A stretch of DNA of 64,000 nt. Source: Candidatus Harrisonbacteria bacterium. Lineage in GTDB: Bacteria > Patescibacteriota > Minisyncoccia > UBA6257 > WO2-44-18. The position numbers and the translations under genes are program-made. The stretch lies in NCBI GenBank assembly GCA_016182295.1, contig JACOXP010000005.1:4926-68925 (forward strand). The letters run 5' to 3'. The notes beneath the pieces were generated by a model that ran no database searches, had not been told where the DNA came from, and saw nothing but the letters and a program-made list of their open reading frames with translations. Shown piece after piece: positions 4,006 through 40,820 of this stretch (within the stretch, counting starts at the first letter, position 1; every line of letters begins with the position of its first letter).

Positions 4006-4076
4006 TGGGGGATCGTCTAATGGTAGGACGCATGGCTCTGAACCATGAAGTCTAGGTTCGACTCCTGGTCCCCCAG
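4006..4076 (+). tRNA. tRNA-Gln (anticodon CTG)
   Basis: Cloverleaf: acceptor tggggga/tccccca, D-stem gtct/ggac, anticodon stem catgg/ccatg with loop ctCTGaa, T-arm ctagg-ttcgact-cctgg, discriminator g. It is flanked by a 9-bp inverted repeat (3997-4005 / 4076-4084) that extends the acceptor stem to 16 bp. Confidence 0.85.
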
Positions 4077-4308
4077 CTCAATTCATTTATTCAGCGCTAG
4101 GCGCGACGACGAAGACGTAAAACTTTACGCCGAGGAGGAGCAACGACGCGATGGAATAAAATTTGCCCGCCCCTTCGGGTTGTTGGCAAAATGGCGTCTC
4201 GACTCGAGGCTCATCCTCGGAGTAGAGTCTACACCTTCGGATTCGCTCCTTCGCGAGACATCCATTTTGCCTAACAACGCGGCGAGAGCTAATATTTTGG
4301 CAAGGGAC

Positions 4309-4352
4309 CTGCTCTGAACCATGAAATTGGGGTTCGATTCCCTGTCCCGGAA
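4309..4352 (+). pseudogene. 3' fragment of a tRNA-Gln gene (anticodon loop of CTG type + T-arm/acceptor of TTG type)
   Basis: ctgctctgaaccatgaaattggggttcgattccctgtcccggaa. The last 24 nt differ by 1 nt from the 3' end of tRNA-Gln(TTG) at 17766-17836. No 5' partner within 80 nt; the partner is at 3923-3947. Confidence 0.5.
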
Positions 4353-4356
4353 CAGA

Positions 4357-4575
4357 TCAAAACTTAACCGGCAGTTGAAGCGCGAAACCAATGGCTATTA
4401 AAAGCAGACCGAAGAGTCCGAATTTTTGTTCTCTTTTCATCTGCGAGAAAACCTTATCGTCTATTTTGTGCTCGCGCCAAAAACGATAATGGACAGCGAT
4501 TGCCATATAACCAACCAGGAGTTTCCCCAAAGTATCGATAAAGAATCCGATTGAAGCTAGTAGTTCTAAACTCAT
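4357..4575 (-). CDS. Small two-TM membrane protein (hypothetical)
   Basis: 72 aa, two hydrophobic helices; compact spacing before the GT-C genes. Confidence 0.3.
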   Translation of the reverse strand: MSLELLASIGFFIDTLGKLLVGYMAIAVHYRFWREHKIDDKVFSQMKREQKFGLFGLLLIAIGFALQLPVKF

Positions 4576-4609: not shown

Positions 4610-6109
4610 ATGAAGCAAAACCTTCTTTGGGTAATCGCGATTTTTGTTGTTTTTGCTGCTGCTTGGCATTTTGGCAATCCCAATATCGCCGATCCGGACA
4701 GTTTCTTTTACATGGGGCTGGCTTCTTGGCATCGGGAAAGCGGAGTTTTGGCCAACGATTTTCCCTGGATATATCACTCCGTCGTTCGCGAGCTTTCCGC
4801 TTCGCTTTGGTATGGTTTTGGCGTTTTTTTAATCCCGTTTTCTTTATTAAGCATTCCTTTTTGGAGTATCAAAATCGCGGGCGTTCTTTTAACCGCGGCG
4901 GCGCTTTTTTCGATTTACTGGGTGTGTAAAAAATTCGGTTTCCGCTGGCCGGCATTCTGGCCATTCCTGGCTTTTTTTGCCGCCCCCAACTCTCTCTTTC
5001 ATTTTCTAATGGTCAGGCCGCAGACAATTTCGCTGATTTTGGCGCCCTTGTTGTTTTATTTTCTTTTACGTCGGTCGTTTTGGGGCATCGCGCTTACTTC
5101 TTTTGGCATCGTCTGGTTTCATTTTAACTTTGCCTGGCTCCCAGTTTTAATTTTTGCCGTCATTAAATTTTACTCGCTTCTTTTTGAGAAAAAAATTGTT
5201 TTAAAAGAAGGTTTGACTTTGCTGGCCGGTCTGTTGTTGGGTTGGCTTTTGCGGCCGGAACCAATCGCTGCCGCCAAGCTTTTTTATATTCAGGTCTTCC
5301 AGCAGATTTTTGAAAAATCCGGCGGTTTGCCGCTGATCTTTGGCGCGGAAAATTATCCTTTAAGCGCCGAGATTCTTTTCACCAATTTCTTGGTGTTTCT
5401 CGTTCTTTGGGTGGCCGGAACGTTTTTTATAAGCAAAACAGCGATGGAAAAAAGAATGCTGATTTTTTGCGGCTTAACCATTTCTTCCATTTTCTTTTTG
5501 ATTTCCATTATTGTGGCGAGGCGAGCATACGACTTCTGGATCATTTTCGGAGTTATTTTTCTCGCTGCCGTTTTTTCCTTCATCGAAGGCAGACAAGTTC
5601 GGCAAGCGGTAGCCTACGTGTTGGGCGGCATTCTTGTTTTTTTGATTTTATTTTCCGGCGTTAAGACCGGTATCAGTTTGGCTAACCAGGGGCACTCGCC
5701 GACAAATTTGAAAGAAGTTTCCCTTTGGCTGAAGGAGAACAGCCAACCTGGGGAAATCGTTTTTAATCTTCACTGGGCGGATTTTTCACCGCTGTTTTAT
5801 TGGAATCGCCAGAATTATTACACTTTCGGTCTCGATCCGATTTTTGCGTACGCCTATAACCCGTCGCTTTATTGGAAATTTCATTACCTTTCCATCGATC
5901 AAGTGACTAAAAAAACTTGCGGCGCTGAAGCCTGCACCCGGGAGCAATTGGAAGATACTTATGAGGTTTTGGTTCGCGATTTTAACGCTAAGTACGTATT
6001 GCTTACCAAAGATGAAAACCCAGCCGTTGATTTTTGGATTAGCGGAGATGATCGTTTTCAGAAAGTATTCGAGACGGATAACGAGAAAATTTACCTCATC
6101 CAAGAATGA
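4610..6109 (+). CDS. GT-C fold polytopic membrane glycosyltransferase (PMT/ArnT/STT3-like), paralog 1
   Basis: 499 aa, about 12 predicted TM segments followed by a ~130-aa soluble C-terminal domain. First-loop motif ADPDSFFYMGLASW (D-x-D-x-aromatic). Translationally coupled to paralog 2. Confidence 0.5.
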   Translation: MKQNLLWVIAIFVVFAAAWHFGNPNIADPDSFFYMGLASWHRESGVLANDFPWIYHSVVRELSASLWYGFGVFLIPFSLLSIPFWSIKIAGVLLTAAALFSIYWVCKKFGFRWPAFWPFLAFFAAPNSLFHFLMVRPQTISLILAPLLFYFLLRRSFWGIALTSFGIVWFHFNFAWLPVLIFAVIKFYSLLFEKKIVLKEGLTLLAGLLLGWLLRPEPIAAAKLFYIQVFQQIFEKSGGLPLIFGAENYPLSAEILFTNFLVFLVLWVAGTFFISKTAMEKRMLIFCGLTISSIFFLISIIVARRAYDFWIIFGVIFLAAVFSFIEGRQVRQAVAYVLGGILVFLILFSGVKTGISLANQGHSPTNLKEVSLWLKENSQPGEIVFNLHWADFSPLFYWNRQNYYTFGLDPIFAYAYNPSLYWKFHYLSIDQVTKKTCGAEACTREQLEDTYEVLVRDFNAKYVLLTKDENPAVDFWISGDDRFQKVFETDNEKIYLIQE

Positions 6110-8532: not shown

Positions 8533-8565
8533 GACGCCCTCCGTCGCATTAAGCGGCGGAGGGCA

Positions 8566-8911
8566 AAGCCGGTAGTTCGTAAGCCGGATTCTGTAACCCA
8601 GATTGAACATCGGGGCGACAACCATTTATCTAAGCGGCACACCGGATTTACGGTTCGGCCTTGCACCCGGTAAGGATTTAGCCGTTTCACCTCCGCCTTT
8701 TATCCCCATAGCGGAGTTGGACCTTCTACGTTGGGATCGGGTCCGCCTGATCCTTTCGAATCAAGCCGTCACTGTTCGCACCTCTACATTACTGTCGGCA
8801 GCCACTACAGCTGCTACCGCGCTGCTACCCACGCCAATGGCGGGGCAGGGGTGTCCGGACTTTCCTCCCTTCGAATTTAATCGAAAAGCGATTGTCTGAA
8901 CTACCGGCTTG
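8566..8911 (-). ncRNA. rnpB: RNase P RNA (bacterial type A), rnpB
   Basis: Minus strand contains GGAGGAAAGTCCGGAC (P4 5' strand, revcomp of 8848-8868) and ACAGAATCCGGCTTA (P4 3' strand, revcomp of about 8574-8590). P1 is formed by AAGCCGGTAGTTC (5' end) and GAACTACCGGCTT (3' end). Length about 345 nt. The six-frame ORFs here (8344-8625, 8493-8690, 8603-8899, 8761-8943) are spurious. Confidence 0.8.
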
Positions 8912-35972: not shown

Positions 35973-36833
35973 TTAACGCCAGATTGTCAACAATGGGCTG
36001 GCAAGAAAAATCGATGAGTAAGTGCCGACCAAAGTACCCGCTAAAATCACTATCAAAAAGTTTTGCAGGTTAACTGGCCCAAAAAACAGGAGGGCGATGA
36101 TCGCGATAACCAGAGTTAAGGATGTATTAATGGATCGGGAAAGAGTTTGATTTACGCTCGCGTTGACTAAGTTGTTAAAATCCCCAGCCCCTTTGGAATT
36201 TTTAATATTTTCCCTAATACGATCAAAAACAACAATTGTGTCATGAACAGAGAACCCCATTACTACCAAAATAGCTACGACAAAATTAGTATCTATTTCG
36301 GCTCCGATGAAATAACCGAGCAGAGCGAAAAGCCCCGCTGGTATAACAGCGTCGTGGAATAAAGTCACCAAAGCGATAATCCCATATTTCCAAGAACTAA
36401 CCGGCTTTGAAACCTTGCGAAAAGCGAAAGCCACATAAATGGAAATCAACGCCAATACCAAACCAAAAGCCCAAATCGCCTTTCGACGAAGTTCATTTCC
36501 GATCACCGGGCCTATATTCTGAAATTGCAATTCTTCCAATTCTCCCACTGAACGAAATTCCGACAATAGCGATTCTTTTGCGGCTTCATCAAGCTCTTTA
36601 AGCCGAATCAAAAAGACGCCATTTTCTTGAGGAATGACCGTTCCTTCGCTCGCAATAACCGCCAACCTTTCCTGAGACGGCGCTTCTCCGAAGAATTTTA
36701 TTTGCCAGGCAACGCCGCCGGCAAAATCTATTCCCGGTTTAAGGCCAAAGAACAGGATGCTCGCCAAGCTGGCTAACGCGAGAAGCGCTGATAAGGTTAT
36801 AAAAATATGTTTTTTGCCGATAATGTTAAGCAT
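35973..36833 (-). CDS. secF: Protein translocase subunit SecF
   Basis: 286 aa; six TM segments; follows secD with an 8-nt overlap. Confidence 0.85.
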   Translation of the reverse strand: MLNIIGKKHIFITLSALLALASLASILFFGLKPGIDFAGGVAWQIKFFGEAPSQERLAVIASEGTVIPQENGVFLIRLKELDEAAKESLLSEFRSVGELEELQFQNIGPVIGNELRRKAIWAFGLVLALISIYVAFAFRKVSKPVSSWKYGIIALVTLFHDAVIPAGLFALLGYFIGAEIDTNFVVAILVVMGFSVHDTIVVFDRIRENIKNSKGAGDFNNLVNASVNQTLSRSINTSLTLVIAIIALLFFGPVNLQNFLIVILAGTLVGTYSSIFLASPLLTIWR

Positions 36834-38073
36834 GATTTTTAATAAATAGTCGTAACATTACTCTGGTAACCGTAATCGCGCTGAACATGCTGATAAGAAC
36901 GCCGATTAAAAGCGCTAACGCGAATCCTCTCACGAAACTGGACGTCAAATAGTAAAGAATGACCGATGTGATAATAGTAGTGATGTTGGAATCGCGAATG
37001 GACGGCCAGGCGCGTTTGAATCCTTCCTCTAGGGAGGTCGCCAAACTAATGCCTTTCGCTATTTCTTCTTTGGAGCGAGCGAAAATCAAAATGTTGGCAT
37101 CCACCGCCATGCCAATCGACAATATAAATCCGGCTATTCCGGCCAAAGTCATCGTAATTCCAAAAAGCTTAAAAACAGAAACTGTAAAAATAACATAAAA
37201 GATTAAGGCCAAAGCGGCGACGTATCCCAAGCGGCGATAATAAATAATCATAAAAAGAATAATAGCCAGCGTTCCCAATGCTCCGGCAGTGATAGCTTTA
37301 TTCAAAGAGTCAGTCCCCAAAGTCGCGCCAATGGTCTGCTCGCTAATTATATGGATTGGGGCCGGAAGAGCGCCGGCATTAAGCAACTGGGCCAATCGCT
37401 TCGCTTCGTTAAAATCGAAACCGCCGGAAATTTGAGCGTTGCCACTGGGGATTTTTTCTTGCACTACCGGCATTGAAATTAATTCATCATCAAGAAAAAT
37501 AGCCAGGGGTTCGCCCACATTTTTTTCCGTAAGTTCGGAAAAAATCGCGCCGCCTTCGCTGTTAAATTGAATGGAAATAACCGGTTCGTTTGTGGTCGGA
37601 TTGGTTGTTACCACGGCGCGCTGGAGATATTTTCCAGTCAAAGTGGTCTTTTTAAAATCCAGTTGCGCCTCTTCTCCCTCACCGATCGCTTCAACTTCTC
37701 GAAAATCAAGCAAAGCCGTGCGGCCAATCAGGCGAATTGCTTCGGCGGTGTCTTTAATCCCAGCCAATTCCACTATGATTTGGTGGGAATCCCCCTGAAC
37801 AGCGGTAGTTACCCTGGGTTCGCTGACGCCGAAAACATTTACCCGCCTTTCCATCACGTCGCGCAGTCCGGCTAAAACAGAGTCCTGGTCCGCCGGAGCC
37901 ACTTCCGACATATCAACTTCATAAATTAAGTAGCTTCCACCCACCAGATCTAGGCCAAGACGCCAAGGCAAAACAATGCCACCAAGCCCTTTTGGATAAA
38001 CAAAAAACGCGGCTCCGACAAACAGGAAAGCAATTAGAAGAAAAAGAAGTAAATTTTTCGTTGCGGAATTCAT
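36826..38073 (-). CDS. secD: Protein translocase subunit SecD
   Basis: 415 aa; N-terminal TM, periplasmic domain, C-terminal six-TM bundle. Confidence 0.85.
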   Translation of the reverse strand: MNSATKNLLLFLLIAFLFVGAAFFVYPKGLGGIVLPWRLGLDLVGGSYLIYEVDMSEVAPADQDSVLAGLRDVMERRVNVFGVSEPRVTTAVQGDSHQIIVELAGIKDTAEAIRLIGRTALLDFREVEAIGEGEEAQLDFKKTTLTGKYLQRAVVTTNPTTNEPVISIQFNSEGGAIFSELTEKNVGEPLAIFLDDELISMPVVQEKIPSGNAQISGGFDFNEAKRLAQLLNAGALPAPIHIISEQTIGATLGTDSLNKAITAGALGTLAIILFMIIYYRRLGYVAALALIFYVIFTVSVFKLFGITMTLAGIAGFILSIGMAVDANILIFARSKEEIAKGISLATSLEEGFKRAWPSIRDSNITTIITSVILYYLTSSFVRGFALALLIGVLISMFSAITVTRVMLRLFIKNHA

Positions 38074-38140
38074 TAATGAATTACTGAAAAATTGCTTTTA
38101 ACTATAATATTAAAAAATGGTTTTGACAATGCGTATAAAA

Positions 38141-38172
38141 AAATGAGCCCCAAGTGGTTGTTACCACAAGGG
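38141..38172 (-). terminator. Intrinsic terminator downstream of the GC-rich islet (minus strand)
   Basis: gagcccc...ggggctc imperfect hairpin, followed on the minus strand by atttttttat. Confidence 0.45.
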
Positions 38173-38190
38173 GCTCGGTTGATGATGAGC

Positions 38191-38682
38191 TTAGCTCGCC
38201 ACACACTTATAGACGCAGAATGGCATGAGCGAGAGAATGAGCTCTCGCTTGCGCCATGCCTTGCGAGACCGAACCCGGTCTTGCGTGGAGTCGGAGCAGA
38301 ACCAGGAATCCTCCGGATACTGCTCGATTTCCTTACAGGCATGAATTTCGATTCCCGCTCCGGCTTCGCGAACGGCTTGCTGAACATCTCGCAGAGCGCG
38401 CCAAAGATGCGGTTTGGCGGCTACGACCCACAACTCGGTGAGTCCGTGTCGCTCCGCCCACCGAACGGTTCCTCGCGCGATGCGCAAAGTCGGCGGTGGA
38501 TTTCCGGGATCTTCTTGCGTGTACTCCACTTGAATACTTTGCTCGACGTGAATATCGAGCTGGGTGTACACCGGAGCATTTAACTCCTGCGCCTTCTTCG
38601 CAACGATTTCGGCGATACGCCGATTGGAGCGAATCGTCCACGGCGCTCCAAAAGCGAACGCGACAATACCCGGGATTTTCAA
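38191..38682 (-). CDS. Hypothetical Rossmann-like protein, possibly nucleoside 2-deoxyribosyltransferase-like; encoded in GC-rich foreign DNA
   Basis: 163 aa; the N-terminus IVAFAFGAPWTIRSNRRI resembles the FGAGWF.DRQN start of N-deoxyribosyltransferases (from memory). Local GC is about 55-60% versus about 40% in the flanks. Confidence 0.3.
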   Translation of the reverse strand: MKIPGIVAFAFGAPWTIRSNRRIAEIVAKKAQELNAPVYTQLDIHVEQSIQVEYTQEDPGNPPPTLRIARGTVRWAERHGLTELWVVAAKPHLWRALRDVQQAVREAGAGIEIHACKEIEQYPEDSWFCSDSTQDRVRSRKAWRKRELILSLMPFCVYKCVAS

Positions 38683-38883
38683 GCTTCACCTCCTAATGTA
38701 TTGGGTTAGAAAAGAGCCGATTCTTGACTGCCGAAATCGTAACATATATCCTCCATTTTGTAAAGGGATAACAAAAATTAAAAAAACCCGCCAGAGCTCC
38801 GAAAGGAGATGGCGGGTCAGTGATATCCGAGGTTCAGATCCCGAATCCAGGTTCGTCCCAGGCGTCGAAGATGTTTTTCCTCG

Positions 38884-39519
38884 TTATTGATTGGCGGGAT
38901 CACAGTTGTGACGCTCGATGTTGTGGCCGTTCTTATCAAATACTTCCGTAAACGACCCGCCATCGACTGAATAGCCGTAACCACCCTGATACCAGCCAAA
39001 AGTGGCGGAGACAGCCCCACACTGATTGCAGCGCTCCAACCGTTCCAAGATTGTCTGGGTATGATATTCTCTCGGGTCACCCTTGATAATTTTATCCACG
39101 GCTTGTTTAATCTCTGGTTCAAGCGTCGTGATTACCGGTACACATTCTGTGAAGGCGTTGTGCGCTTCGATGGCCTTGAGTTTTAGTACTCCTGCCGCTT
39201 CTTCTCCACAGTTGATGATCTCCATCTTTTGTACACGTGGAAGATGGAACACTGAACCGATTGTCTCACCGTGATACTTTTCAAGGCAAAACGCGGCGAT
39301 CTCCGCGCGATAGGCAAGGGATTCTTCCGTATCTCCCGCGAGCAAGCCCCATGCCTTACCTTGATCCTCAACTCGTTTGGCGTTTCTCGCATAACGACGT
39401 TCGTCGCCGCGAAGTCGTTCTGCCTCGATGAGTAGTGCTTCGAATCTTTTGTCCATTGCGACCCCCTTTTCAATTGTTTTGGTGCTGATTTTGGCGAGCG
39501 AATCAGGTGAAAAACCCAA
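38884..39519 (-). CDS. Hypothetical Cys-containing protein encoded in GC-rich foreign DNA
   Basis: 211 aa; five Cys including CNQCG and HNCDP; no recognisable family; same high-GC codon usage as its neighbour. Confidence 0.3.
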   Translation of the reverse strand: MGFSPDSLAKISTKTIEKGVAMDKRFEALLIEAERLRGDERRYARNAKRVEDQGKAWGLLAGDTEESLAYRAEIAAFCLEKYHGETIGSVFHLPRVQKMEIINCGEEAAGVLKLKAIEAHNAFTECVPVITTLEPEIKQAVDKIIKGDPREYHTQTILERLERCNQCGAVSATFGWYQGGYGYSVDGGSFTEVFDKNGHNIERHNCDPANQ

Positions 39520-39602
39520 TCCTACTAACTCGTCAAATCCGCACTGATATTACACGAATAAACTCCTTTGTCAAGCGAAAACGGAAATCGAAAGTCAGAT
39601 TT

Positions 39603-39676
39603 TGGTGCCCCCACATGGAATCGAACCATGGTCAACTGCTTAAAAGGCAGCTGCTTTACCATTAAGCTATGGGGGC
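39603..39676 (-). tRNA. tRNA-Lys (anticodon TTT), CCA encoded
   Basis: Minus strand gccccca/tgggggc acceptor, anticodon stem gctgc/gcagt with loop ctTTTaa, T-arm catgg-ttcgatt-ccatg, 3' acca. Confidence 0.85.
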
Positions 39677-39722
39677 GTCTTTCGCTTATTTTAATACAAA
39701 ACCCCCGCTTTGACAAATTACT

Positions 39723-40820
39723 TTATTCTATTTCCCGCTCAAGATCCTCTAAAATTTTTTTGGCTTTGGCGTTGAGTCTTTTGGGAGCGCGGACCTCCCA
39801 TTCAACATAAAGATCGCCGCGGCCGCGGCCTCCGAACTTAGTCATTCCTTCTCCGGAAATTTTTACGCGTTCCCGCAAATCCACTCCCGCCGGAATCACC
39901 ATAAAAACTTTATTGCCGCTGATAGTCGGTATTTCAATTTTTTTCTCCAATAACACATCCAACAAGTCAATCTCTTTTTTTACAAAAAGGTCGTCATTAA
40001 ATCGTTTAAAAATTTTATGATCGGCTATTTTTATCCTAAGATAAAGGTCGCCTGGCTCCGCTCCCCGCTCTCCGGCATCTCCCGCTTTGGGAATTTTAAT
40101 AAGTTGATCATTGGCTACTCCGGGAGCGATTGTTATTTTAATTTCTTTGGAAACCTTTACTCTTCCGGTTCCGGAACACTCTCGGCAGGGTTTTTTGGGA
40201 ATTTGACCGCTACCCGAACATTTCGGGCAAGTTTTTACCTGGGAAATATTTCCGAAAAAAGTGCTTCGGGATTCCCGAATTTCCCCCCGCCCGCTGCAAG
40301 TCGAGCATTCGCTGACGCCTTCAGAAGCAAAATACCCCAGGCCGGAGCATTGGCCGCAGGAAGTAAAAACTTTAACTTTAATATTTCGATCAATGCCGCG
40401 AAAAGCTTCCTCAAAAGTAATTTCTTCAACAACCTCTAAATCAGAACCGCGATTATAACTTTTTCGTTTTCTGACTCCCAATCCCTCAAAAAACGCGTCG
40501 AAAATATCGCTGATATTGCCAAGATCCTCCGCGTTGCTCGGATCGAAGCCAAAACCAAACTCAAAATTTCCGAAGGGGTTATCCCCGCCGGGAGAAGGTC
40601 CGCCTCCGGCGGAAAAAACCCGCCCAAAGCGGTCGTATTGCGATCGTTTTTCTTTATTGGAGAGGACCTGATAGGCCTCGTTAATTTCTTTAAATTTTTC
40701 AGAATTTCCACCGGCTTTGTCCGGATGATGTTGGTGAGCCAATTTACGGTAAGCTCGCTTGATGTCGTCTTCCGTAGCGCCCTTACCGACACCAAGAATT
40801 TGGTAATAATCTTTAGGCAT
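39723..40820 (-). CDS. dnaJ: Chaperone DnaJ
   Basis: J-domain YYQILGV...HPDK, G/F region, four CxxCxGxG zinc-finger repeats. Confidence 0.9.

Follow-up and report, generated by a model that had tools for sequence, protein, structure and literature searches.

Why does an AT-rich genome carry a markedly GC-rich stretch between secD and a tRNA-Lys gene? The question is raised by 64,000 nt of DNA from Candidatus Harrisonbacteria bacterium (GenBank assembly GCA_016182295.1, contig JACOXP010000005.1, positions 4,926 to 68,925 of the forward strand), here called the window and numbered from its first letter. The interval holds two open reading frames (ORFs) on the minus strand, ORF A (38191-38682) and ORF B (38884-39456), which an initial annotation, made from the sequence alone, took for a foreign two-gene islet. 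Our analysis shows that ORF A is a genuine gene for a 163 aa, single-domain, Rossmann-like alpha/beta protein, and indicates that it is probably a laterally spreading accessory cassette among the Paceibacteria, tending to sit 3' of tRNA genes. Bacteria of this kind, the Patescibacteria or candidate phyla radiation (CPR), have tiny genomes and are reliant on DNA uptake, and the movement of accessory genes among them is little understood.

Composition and Integrity of the Locus

The window has a GC content of 43.7%, with a standard deviation (sd) of 3.5% in 450-nt windows. The highest of all 450-nt windows in the 64 kb lies inside ORF A (38201-38650; 57.3%, +3.9 sd), and the sliding-window check suggested with the initial annotation thus bears out the anomaly for this gene. 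ORF A as a whole has 56.7% GC, and its values at codon positions 1, 2 and 3 are 0.62, 0.46 and 0.62, compared with 0.52, 0.38 and 0.44 in 23 long host ORFs, which bears out the reported bias towards GC-ending codons. The intergenic flanks are AT-rich (33% and 39% GC), again as reported. The GC excess had been described as extending from 38190 to 39520, and in this respect the description holds for ORF A but not for a uniform islet: ORF B, at 50.3% GC (about +2 sd), shows only a mild rise, to a level that is common to dnaK, the RNase P RNA at 8565-8907 and other segments.

Three independent assemblies, each derived from another sequencing run, match the window sequence exactly from 39659 to 34884, with 0 mismatches over 4776 nt. 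Because these per-run assemblies agree across the junctions, the ORF B-ORF A-secD arrangement is excluded as a chimera of a metagenome-assembled genome (MAG), a possibility that had been flagged for checking. All three contigs (L055, L056 and L057; homologous loci and contigs are given L numbers) stop within the tRNA-Lys gene, at window positions 39659 and 39634. Breaks at this point would arise if several genomes that occur together have the tRNA sequence in common, or if the junction is polymorphic within the population.

ORF A Represents a Conserved Protein Family

Neither ORF A nor ORF B matches an entry in Pfam, NCBIfam, PHROGs, PADLOC or the PDB sequences, in agreement with the earlier statement that neither protein has confident homology. 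ORF A belongs to an uncharacterised family that is almost confined to the Paceibacteria (Parcubacteria). There are 288 homologues at 62-80% identity and of nearly constant length, and a profile search of 1.84 billion representatives returned 345 clusters (at 50% identity), nearly all of them stand-alone proteins of about 160-170 aa. Among GTDB species representatives the family is present in 42 genomes, almost all of them Patescibacteria, and the named lineages are Harrison-, Ryan-, Colwell-, Moran-, Lipton-, Jorgensen- and Yanofskybacteria, Spechtbacterales, Paceibacteria/Paceibacterota and Parcubacteria.

A few short contigs binned outside the CPR also carry members (L046, L034, L038, L047, L015 and P0010), the bins being Rhodoplanes, Pirellulales, Sulfurimonas, Bdellovibrionales, Gammaproteobacteria and Nitrososphaera. 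Most of these occurrences look like mis-binned short CPR contigs; the L046 contig, from a Rhodoplanes MAG and with flanks of 65% GC, may be a genuine occurrence outside the Patescibacteria. No relatives were found in phage, plasmid or IMG/VR collections, and with PADLOC and PHROG searches also empty, an origin from a defence system or phage was rejected. An apparent 683 aa fusion in L045 proved to be an artefact of a run of Ns, and a second 163 aa ORF beside the homologue in L006 is unrelated.

Substitution patterns in 41 family genes are those of a protein-coding sequence. Variability at the three codon positions is 0.37, 0.29 and 0.63, highest at the third, the median ratio of nonsynonymous to synonymous divergence (dN/dS) is 0.21, and indels occur in multiples of three (alignment A7). 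The AlphaFold 2 model, built with 44 sequences, is confident (predicted local distance difference test 92, predicted template modelling score 0.87) and depicts a five-stranded parallel alpha/beta domain followed by two C-terminal helices. In a divergent alignment R95, D99 and Y158 are invariant, while F11, G12, N20, Q41, T65, H92, R98, W127, Q134 and W143 are at least 90% conserved.

These results bear on the proposal that the GC-rich stretch is a structured non-coding RNA carrying an incidental ORF. GC peaks in this AT-rich genome can indeed be RNAs, as the second-highest peak is RNase P RNA, and the ORF A transcript is unusually stable, with z = -5.7 relative to dinucleotide shuffles, and z = -3.7 for the coding sequence (CDS) relative to synonymous shuffles. 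Against this stand the codon-periodic substitutions, the dN/dS of about 0.2, the in-frame indels and the confident protein model, together with the lack of any Rfam match or conserved consensus structure. Taken with its companion, the assembly chimera contradicted by the three assemblies described above, this explanation is extremely improbable. A 163 aa antisense ORF at 38092-38583 (+) overlaps ORF A; it is without support as a gene and is an expected by-product of GC-rich coding DNA.

Probable Lateral Spread of ORF A

The gene neighbourhood of ORF A differs in every locus examined, including those of its two closest relatives (80% identical), where the contexts are restriction-modification genes with a transposase, and PaaX. 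In two further loci, L002 and L006, infB and rbfA both lie beside the cassette. Between these loci the initiation factor IF-2 is 41% and RbfA 36% identical, compared with 75% for the ORF A proteins. At synonymous sites, divergence (dS) is saturated for infB, with an identity of 0.28 at four-fold sites, while ORF A has a dS of 1.23 and an identity of 0.54. The non-coding flanks of ORF A are still alignable between distant hosts, which likewise points to lateral spread. Contexts, protein identities, unsaturated synonymous sites and flanks thus all agree with the suggestion, made in the initial annotation, of horizontal transfer next to a tRNA gene, as far as ORF A is concerned. What could not be retained was the use of composition as a simple mark of a recent event. 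GC content exceeds that of the gene's own flanks in 40 of 42 genomes (mean 52.6% versus 43.0%, a difference of 9.6 points), the excess being 7.5 points at the first codon position, 8.7 at the second and 14 at the third, and third-position GC (GC3) is about 0.6 even where that of the host is 0.23-0.27 (L001, L009 and L053). High GC is a property of the ORF A family, and not only the scar of one transfer.

The family mRNAs are also over-stable. Relative to synonymous shuffles, the minimum free energy of the CDS has a mean z of -2.2 (n = 20), compared with -0.4 for 30 control segments that include genes from GC-rich hosts (p = 1e-4). The set consists of window 38191-38682 and 19 homologues, for example L001:6001-6510, L037 and L013. 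A structured RNA overlapping the CDS was considered and set aside, as the individual mRNAs are over-stable yet share no conserved consensus.

Several points weigh against lateral spread as the full account. The GC excess is not correlated with how closely a member resembles the window copy (rho 0.17, p 0.29), and RNAalifold finds no conserved CDS structure behind the excess mRNA stability. The tRNA-Lys(ttt) gene recurs upstream of members that are just 47-57% identical (L030 and L045), and this recurrence and the steady GC excess fit an old, partly vertical association combined with an intrinsic compositional constraint. Gain at exactly this position, between tRNA-Lys and secD, is something that we infer.

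Taken to its conclusion, this line of argument would make ORF A an old, vertically inherited gene of Paceibacteria, under strong purifying selection on the protein as well as on mRNA and GC content, with no lateral transfer needed and with an ancestral tRNA neighbourhood that was rearranged later. In its favour, the GC excess is family-wide and independent of similarity to the window copy, stable folding of the CDS in most members would constrain synonymous sites and mimic a low dS, and tRNA-Lys(ttt), Leu(caa), Val(tac) and Leu(taa) are each found upstream of several members. Purely vertical descent is difficult to reconcile with promoter, leader and inter-terminator DNA that can be aligned between hosts with 41% identical IF-2 and saturated infB synonymous sites. 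It also fits poorly with the unrelated contexts of the closest relatives (restriction-modification genes and a transposase, PaaX, infB-rbfA and dnaJ/secD), with the patchy distribution over 42 GTDB species, and with the RNAalifold result, which provides no conserved CDS structure able to fix synonymous sites. We consider such a history unlikely, and lateral spread of the cassette is preferred.

Small, free-standing GIY-YIG genes occur within a few kb of an ORF A homologue in two loci (L002:2729-2971 and L004:8052-8336), and genes for a rolling-circle Rep, Zeta toxin, Fic and AbiEii are found near homologues in L004 and L005. Such neighbours place some ORF A copies in mobile or defence-rich neighbourhoods.

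Cassette Structure and Linkage to tRNA Genes

Judged by its sequence elements, the ORF A unit is a self-contained expression cassette. Homology among the window and loci L021, L007, L008, L052, L053 and L025 runs from the upstream terminator/promoter to just past the T-run of the ORF A terminator, and the promoter, 5' untranslated region (UTR), Shine-Dalgarno sequence, TTG start codon and terminator hairpin are conserved in the closest relatives. TTG is the start codon in 15 of 19 aligned genes. About 22 of 48 loci have a recognisable terminator hairpin, which is homologous across the family; RNAalifold predicts 11 pairs in it, 7 of which show compensatory changes. In the closest relatives, the cassette opens with an upstream terminator and a promoter of the sigma-70 type, continues with a leader that is short and unstructured, a strong Shine-Dalgarno sequence paired with a weak TTG start, and the ORF, and closes with the conserved hairpin terminator.

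In 14 of 48 loci a tRNA gene on the same strand ends within 350 nt upstream of ORF A, compared with 1.5% of positions drawn at random from these loci; for a distance of 1 kb, the figures are 19 of 48 and 3.7%. The nominal binomial p for the 350-nt linkage is 1e-14, although the loci cannot be treated as independent. The cassette adjoins at least nine tRNA species. In the window the neighbour is the minus-strand tRNA-Lys(ttt) gene at 39603-39676, the position given in the initial annotation and confirmed by ARAGORN and Rfam, and the same tRNA precedes ORF A in the 80% identical locus L053; in the window, the spacer between the two holds ORF B.

The usual machinery of integration was not seen. 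Between tRNA-Lys and secD there is no integrase, only ORF B and ORF A, neither of which matches a recombinase family, and the window contains no att-like repeat of the tRNA 3' end, just as the initial annotation had reported. In all 19 tRNA-linked loci, the 800 nt downstream lack a direct repeat of the tRNA 3' end; a downstream match to the tRNA end scored above shuffled controls in L029 only (11.5 compared with a shuffled maximum of 10.5). The most economical route for the cassette would be uptake of DNA followed by recombination in permissive intergenic DNA flanking tRNA genes, in which the conserved tRNA gene may serve as a homology anchor.

In six loci (L007, L008, L015, L052, L053 and L009) the motif GAAA(A/T)(T/G)(G/T)CAA is found 5-15 nt past the tRNA 3' end. 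These loci adjoin different tRNA genes (Arg, Leu and Lys), with a GCACCA remnant in L052, and some of them also share a GGCCGCC...GGCGGCC hairpin after the motif. This hints at homology that reaches the tRNA end, but the pattern is loose and common by chance, and is a weak lead. In L030, the DNA directly after tRNA-Lys(ttt), at 4742-4900, contains sequences like the 5' and 3' halves of a tRNA (cccatagcttaatgg ... ggattcgattccttgcgggagcgcca), with about 90 nt inserted between them, and may represent an intron-containing tRNA. Intron-containing tRNAs are described for Patescibacteria in a preprint (bioRxiv 10.1101/2025.07.03.662931).

The linkage can also be viewed as the work of a selfish, homing-type element. 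Conserved tRNA genes, or the DNA 3' of them, would then be targeted by the ORF A protein or by a trans-acting factor, and recombinational repair would copy the element in, as happens with free-standing homing endonuclease genes of phage tRNA clusters; repeated gene conversion would also raise GC. Much of the architecture is compatible with this: the unit consists of one gene that brings along its promoter and terminator, is enriched about 19-fold immediately 3' of many different tRNA species, has neither integrase nor att repeats, and is patchy in distribution yet highly conserved in sequence. Similarity also seems to reach to within 5-10 nt of the tRNA 3' end or its remnant in the six motif-bearing loci. 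Two of 92 members gave weak Pfam matches to the NYN (PIN-like nuclease) domain, with a best E of 8e-5. The protein itself argues otherwise, as no nuclease or recombinase family was detected, D99 is the sole acidic residue that is invariant, and strand 1 is not followed by a catalytic Asp. A dN/dS of about 0.2 and long terminal branches are together more usual for a gene that serves the cell, a nearby tRNA is lacking in more than half of the loci, and the post-tRNA motif is loose enough to be found by chance. A homing element of this type is therefore given little credence.

Only slightly more credible is a broader version, in which ORF A is a new kind of small mobile unit of Patescibacteria, with a single gene and neither integrase nor att site, that inserts directly 3' of tRNA genes with many different specificities by a homing-like or other mechanism, which its own Rossmann-like protein may encode. 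Room for such a mechanism is left by the GC3 excess, the over-stable mRNA and the integrase-less linkage to tRNA genes. If it were true, high GC and over-stable mRNA would be consequences or requirements of the mechanism, for example through GC-biased gene conversion. A serine or tyrosine recombinase, suggested by the H-x-x-R...Y pattern, stays speculation: there is no Pfam match, and the Rossmann-like topology is unlike that of tyrosine recombinases.

ORF B and the Proposed Two-Gene Module

The initial annotation had suggested that the two ORFs could form a module for modifying nucleosides or nucleotides, or for conflict, pairing an ORF A enzyme resembling nucleoside 2-deoxyribosyltransferases (NDT) with the cysteine cluster of ORF B. 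The two genes do lie next to each other on one strand, each has a higher GC content than the host, and a Rossmann-like fold such as that modelled for ORF A could bind a nucleotide. The pairing itself is not sustained by the locus or the family. A terminator and a promoter lie between the genes, PADLOC searches were empty, and ORF B is found beside ORF A in none of the 47 other loci. ORF B has just three homologues, at 59-69% identity; the only one on a contig long enough to display neighbours, from Taylorbacteria, lies among nucleotide-sugar genes with no ORF A nearby. There is thus hardly any prospect that the two genes form a functional module.

The length of ORF B was also revised. A 211 aa product from a TTG codon is unlikely, and the 190 aa product from the ATG at 39456, as called by NCBI, is the most likely. 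It has a helical N-terminal part and a C-terminal beta-sheet with a CxxC...HxC arrangement, and a structure search returned generic helical matches only. ORF B is a rare orphan that is unrelated to ORF A and fills the spacer between tRNA and cassette at this locus. For annotation, the lesson is that a GC peak is no evidence of a two-gene module.

Transcription Units of the Locus

The locus consists of four independent minus-strand transcription units, tRNA-Lys, ORF B, ORF A and secDF, a layout that was read from the sequence and from a scan for promoter consensus, so that promoter-like sites are consensus matches. A promoter-like site for tRNA-Lys is located at 39688-39716, ahead of the tRNA gene (Rfam tRNA, 76.8 bits) that lies upstream of both ORFs; no terminator was identified for this unit at the locus. 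The candidate promoter of ORF B (TTGACA, 16 nt, TAATAT; 39547-39574) agrees with the consensus at 10 of 12 positions, and the gene (38884-39456) is followed at about 38780-38816 by an intrinsic terminator, CCCGCC...GGCGGG and then a T7 run, which was read from the sequence; in alignment A3 the ORF A promoter comes directly after it. Because this terminator and the promoter at 38736-38764 separate them, ORF B and ORF A are distinct units.

The predicted ORF A promoter (TTTACA, 17 nt, TACGAT, preceded by TG) was identified by the promoter scan and in alignments A3 and A6, and is kept in the closest homologous loci as CTTTACA...TGtTATACT. The AT-rich 5' leader of about 50 nt (38683-38735; alignments A3, A6 and A8) has the Shine-Dalgarno sequence AGGAGGTGA at its end, before the TTG start at 38682. 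No conserved structure was detected in the leader, for which RNAalifold predicts 0 pairs and Rfam has no match, and a riboswitch or leader RNA was rejected on the same grounds. The ORF A terminator (38137-38176) was defined from folds of 48 loci and RNAalifold; its stem, which has a 2x2 internal loop, is formed by GAGCCCCTTGTGGT and ACCACTTGGGGCTC on either side of a loop, and a T7 run comes next. The ORF A transcript is thereby predicted to begin at about 38730 and to stop at about 38137. A terminator had previously been placed at 38141-38172; it is present, but the hairpin occupies 38145-38176 and the T-run 38137-38143. Host transcription would resume from a promoter-like site at 38101-38129, in front of secD (36826-38073, from the ORF list). 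Apart from the tRNA, Rfam gave no match in 37900-39800 at E up to 1, and nothing beyond tRNAs was found in six homologous loci.

Possible Function of the ORF A Protein

ORF A probably encodes an enzyme, or a binder of a small molecule of the nucleotide or cofactor type, that is cytoplasmic or peripherally associated with the membrane. In such folds the usual ligand site is formed by residues that follow the beta-strands, and in ORF A most of the conserved residues appear after strands, judged by predicted secondary structure. The predicted site would occupy the sheet's C-terminal edge and be lined by F11-G12-x-P14, N20, Q41, T65, H92-x-x-R95-x-x-R98-D99 and Y158, residues that were placed by predicted secondary structure.

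The nearest known resemblance, a weak one, is to DUF218/YdcF. DUF218 (PF02698) is the most recurrent weak Pfam match, being found in 4 of 92 divergent members with a best E of 0.045. No member tested reached the PF02698 gathering score, the window protein has no match at E up to 1, and none of 44 close members matches at E up to 5. Searching 1309 ORFs of the fetched CPR loci with YdcF by phmmer gave no match. The family of YdcF, SanA and ElyC (E. coli YdcF, 3ca8) has, like ORF A, a three-layer alpha/beta domain with conserved residues after strands, and carries an H-x-x-R motif, to which V-A-A-x-P-H-x-x-R after strand 4 of ORF A may correspond, although this is only a lead. ORF A differs in size (163 aa, compared with 266 aa for YdcF), lacks an N-terminal membrane anchor of the SanA/ElyC kind, and has 8% sequence identity to YdcF in a structural alignment.

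Some results stand in the way of a firmer assignment. Alignment of the ORF A profile (A4; 92 sequences, effective number of sequences 4.9) with that of 31 enterobacterial YdcF proteins (A5) by hhalign gave a probability of 0.5%, a weak test in view of the low diversity of A5. Foldseek returned only weak, generic Rossmann matches (template modelling score up to 0.47), with YdcF outside the top 50. Membership of DUF218 cannot be demonstrated on these results, and neither a ligand nor a partner gene nor a regulatory RNA was found that would give a functional handle on ORF A.

The initial annotation had described ORF A as Rossmann-like and NDT-like, and of these labels the AlphaFold model upholds the first. 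NDT (PF05014) proteins similarly have a small Rossmann/flavodoxin-like alpha/beta domain with a glycine-containing loop after strand 1, but the N-terminal resemblance of ORF A is a short, low-information match. With no Pfam match and two structure searches against it, an NDT-like enzyme was rejected, and this label should not be propagated.

Other GC-Rich Segments of the Window

The second-highest GC peak of the window (8565-8907, minus strand; about 54%) contains no convincing ORF and matches the model for class A bacterial RNase P RNA along its entire length (1-367; 73 bits, E 3.7e-22). It was missed by the default Rfam scan because 73 bits falls below the gathering score of 100. Another segment, 4078-4360 (+), is about 280 nt long with about 51% GC and lies downstream of tRNA-Gln(ctg) (4006-4077). 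It has no credible ORF and no Rfam match, and folds as a long, rod-like helix (z = -3.0). Close to the 3' end of the segment lies GGGGUUCGAUUCCC, which resembles the T-arm of a tRNA. The segment may represent an unannotated non-coding RNA or an interrupted tRNA.

Comparison with Known Mobile Systems

The ORF A cassette is better conserved than a core translation factor, lies 10-30 GC points above its AT-rich hosts, brings along a promoter and a terminator of its own, and is found next to tRNA genes although the usual integration machinery is missing. These four unusual properties make it a tractable marker for gene flow and insertion-site choice in the CPR, and the unannotated family, with at least 345 clusters at 50% identity, merits a Pfam entry and biochemical study.

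Two known systems invite comparison. The free-standing homing endonuclease genes seg and mob spread in the tRNA cluster of phage T4. Like ORF A, they are single-gene cassettes with their own promoter and terminator, are inserted between highly conserved genes, have no integrase or att sites, and are patchy yet conserved. Unlike them, ORF A shows no GIY-YIG, HNH, LAGLIDADG or PD-(D/E)xK domain among its Pfam, PHROG or structural matches. From integrase-mediated islands, ORF A is distinguished by having neither an integrase gene nor a repeat of the tRNA 3' end, by the size of the unit, a single gene of about 0.65 kb, and by its association with many tRNA species and not one specific att site. 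With tRNA-associated islands it nevertheless shares a foreign composition, a position 3' of a tRNA gene, a patchy distribution and varied contexts, and when the family is judged by the combination used to recognise such islands, placement immediately 3' of a tRNA with atypical composition, 14 of 48 loci have that placement and 40 of 42 are GC-richer.

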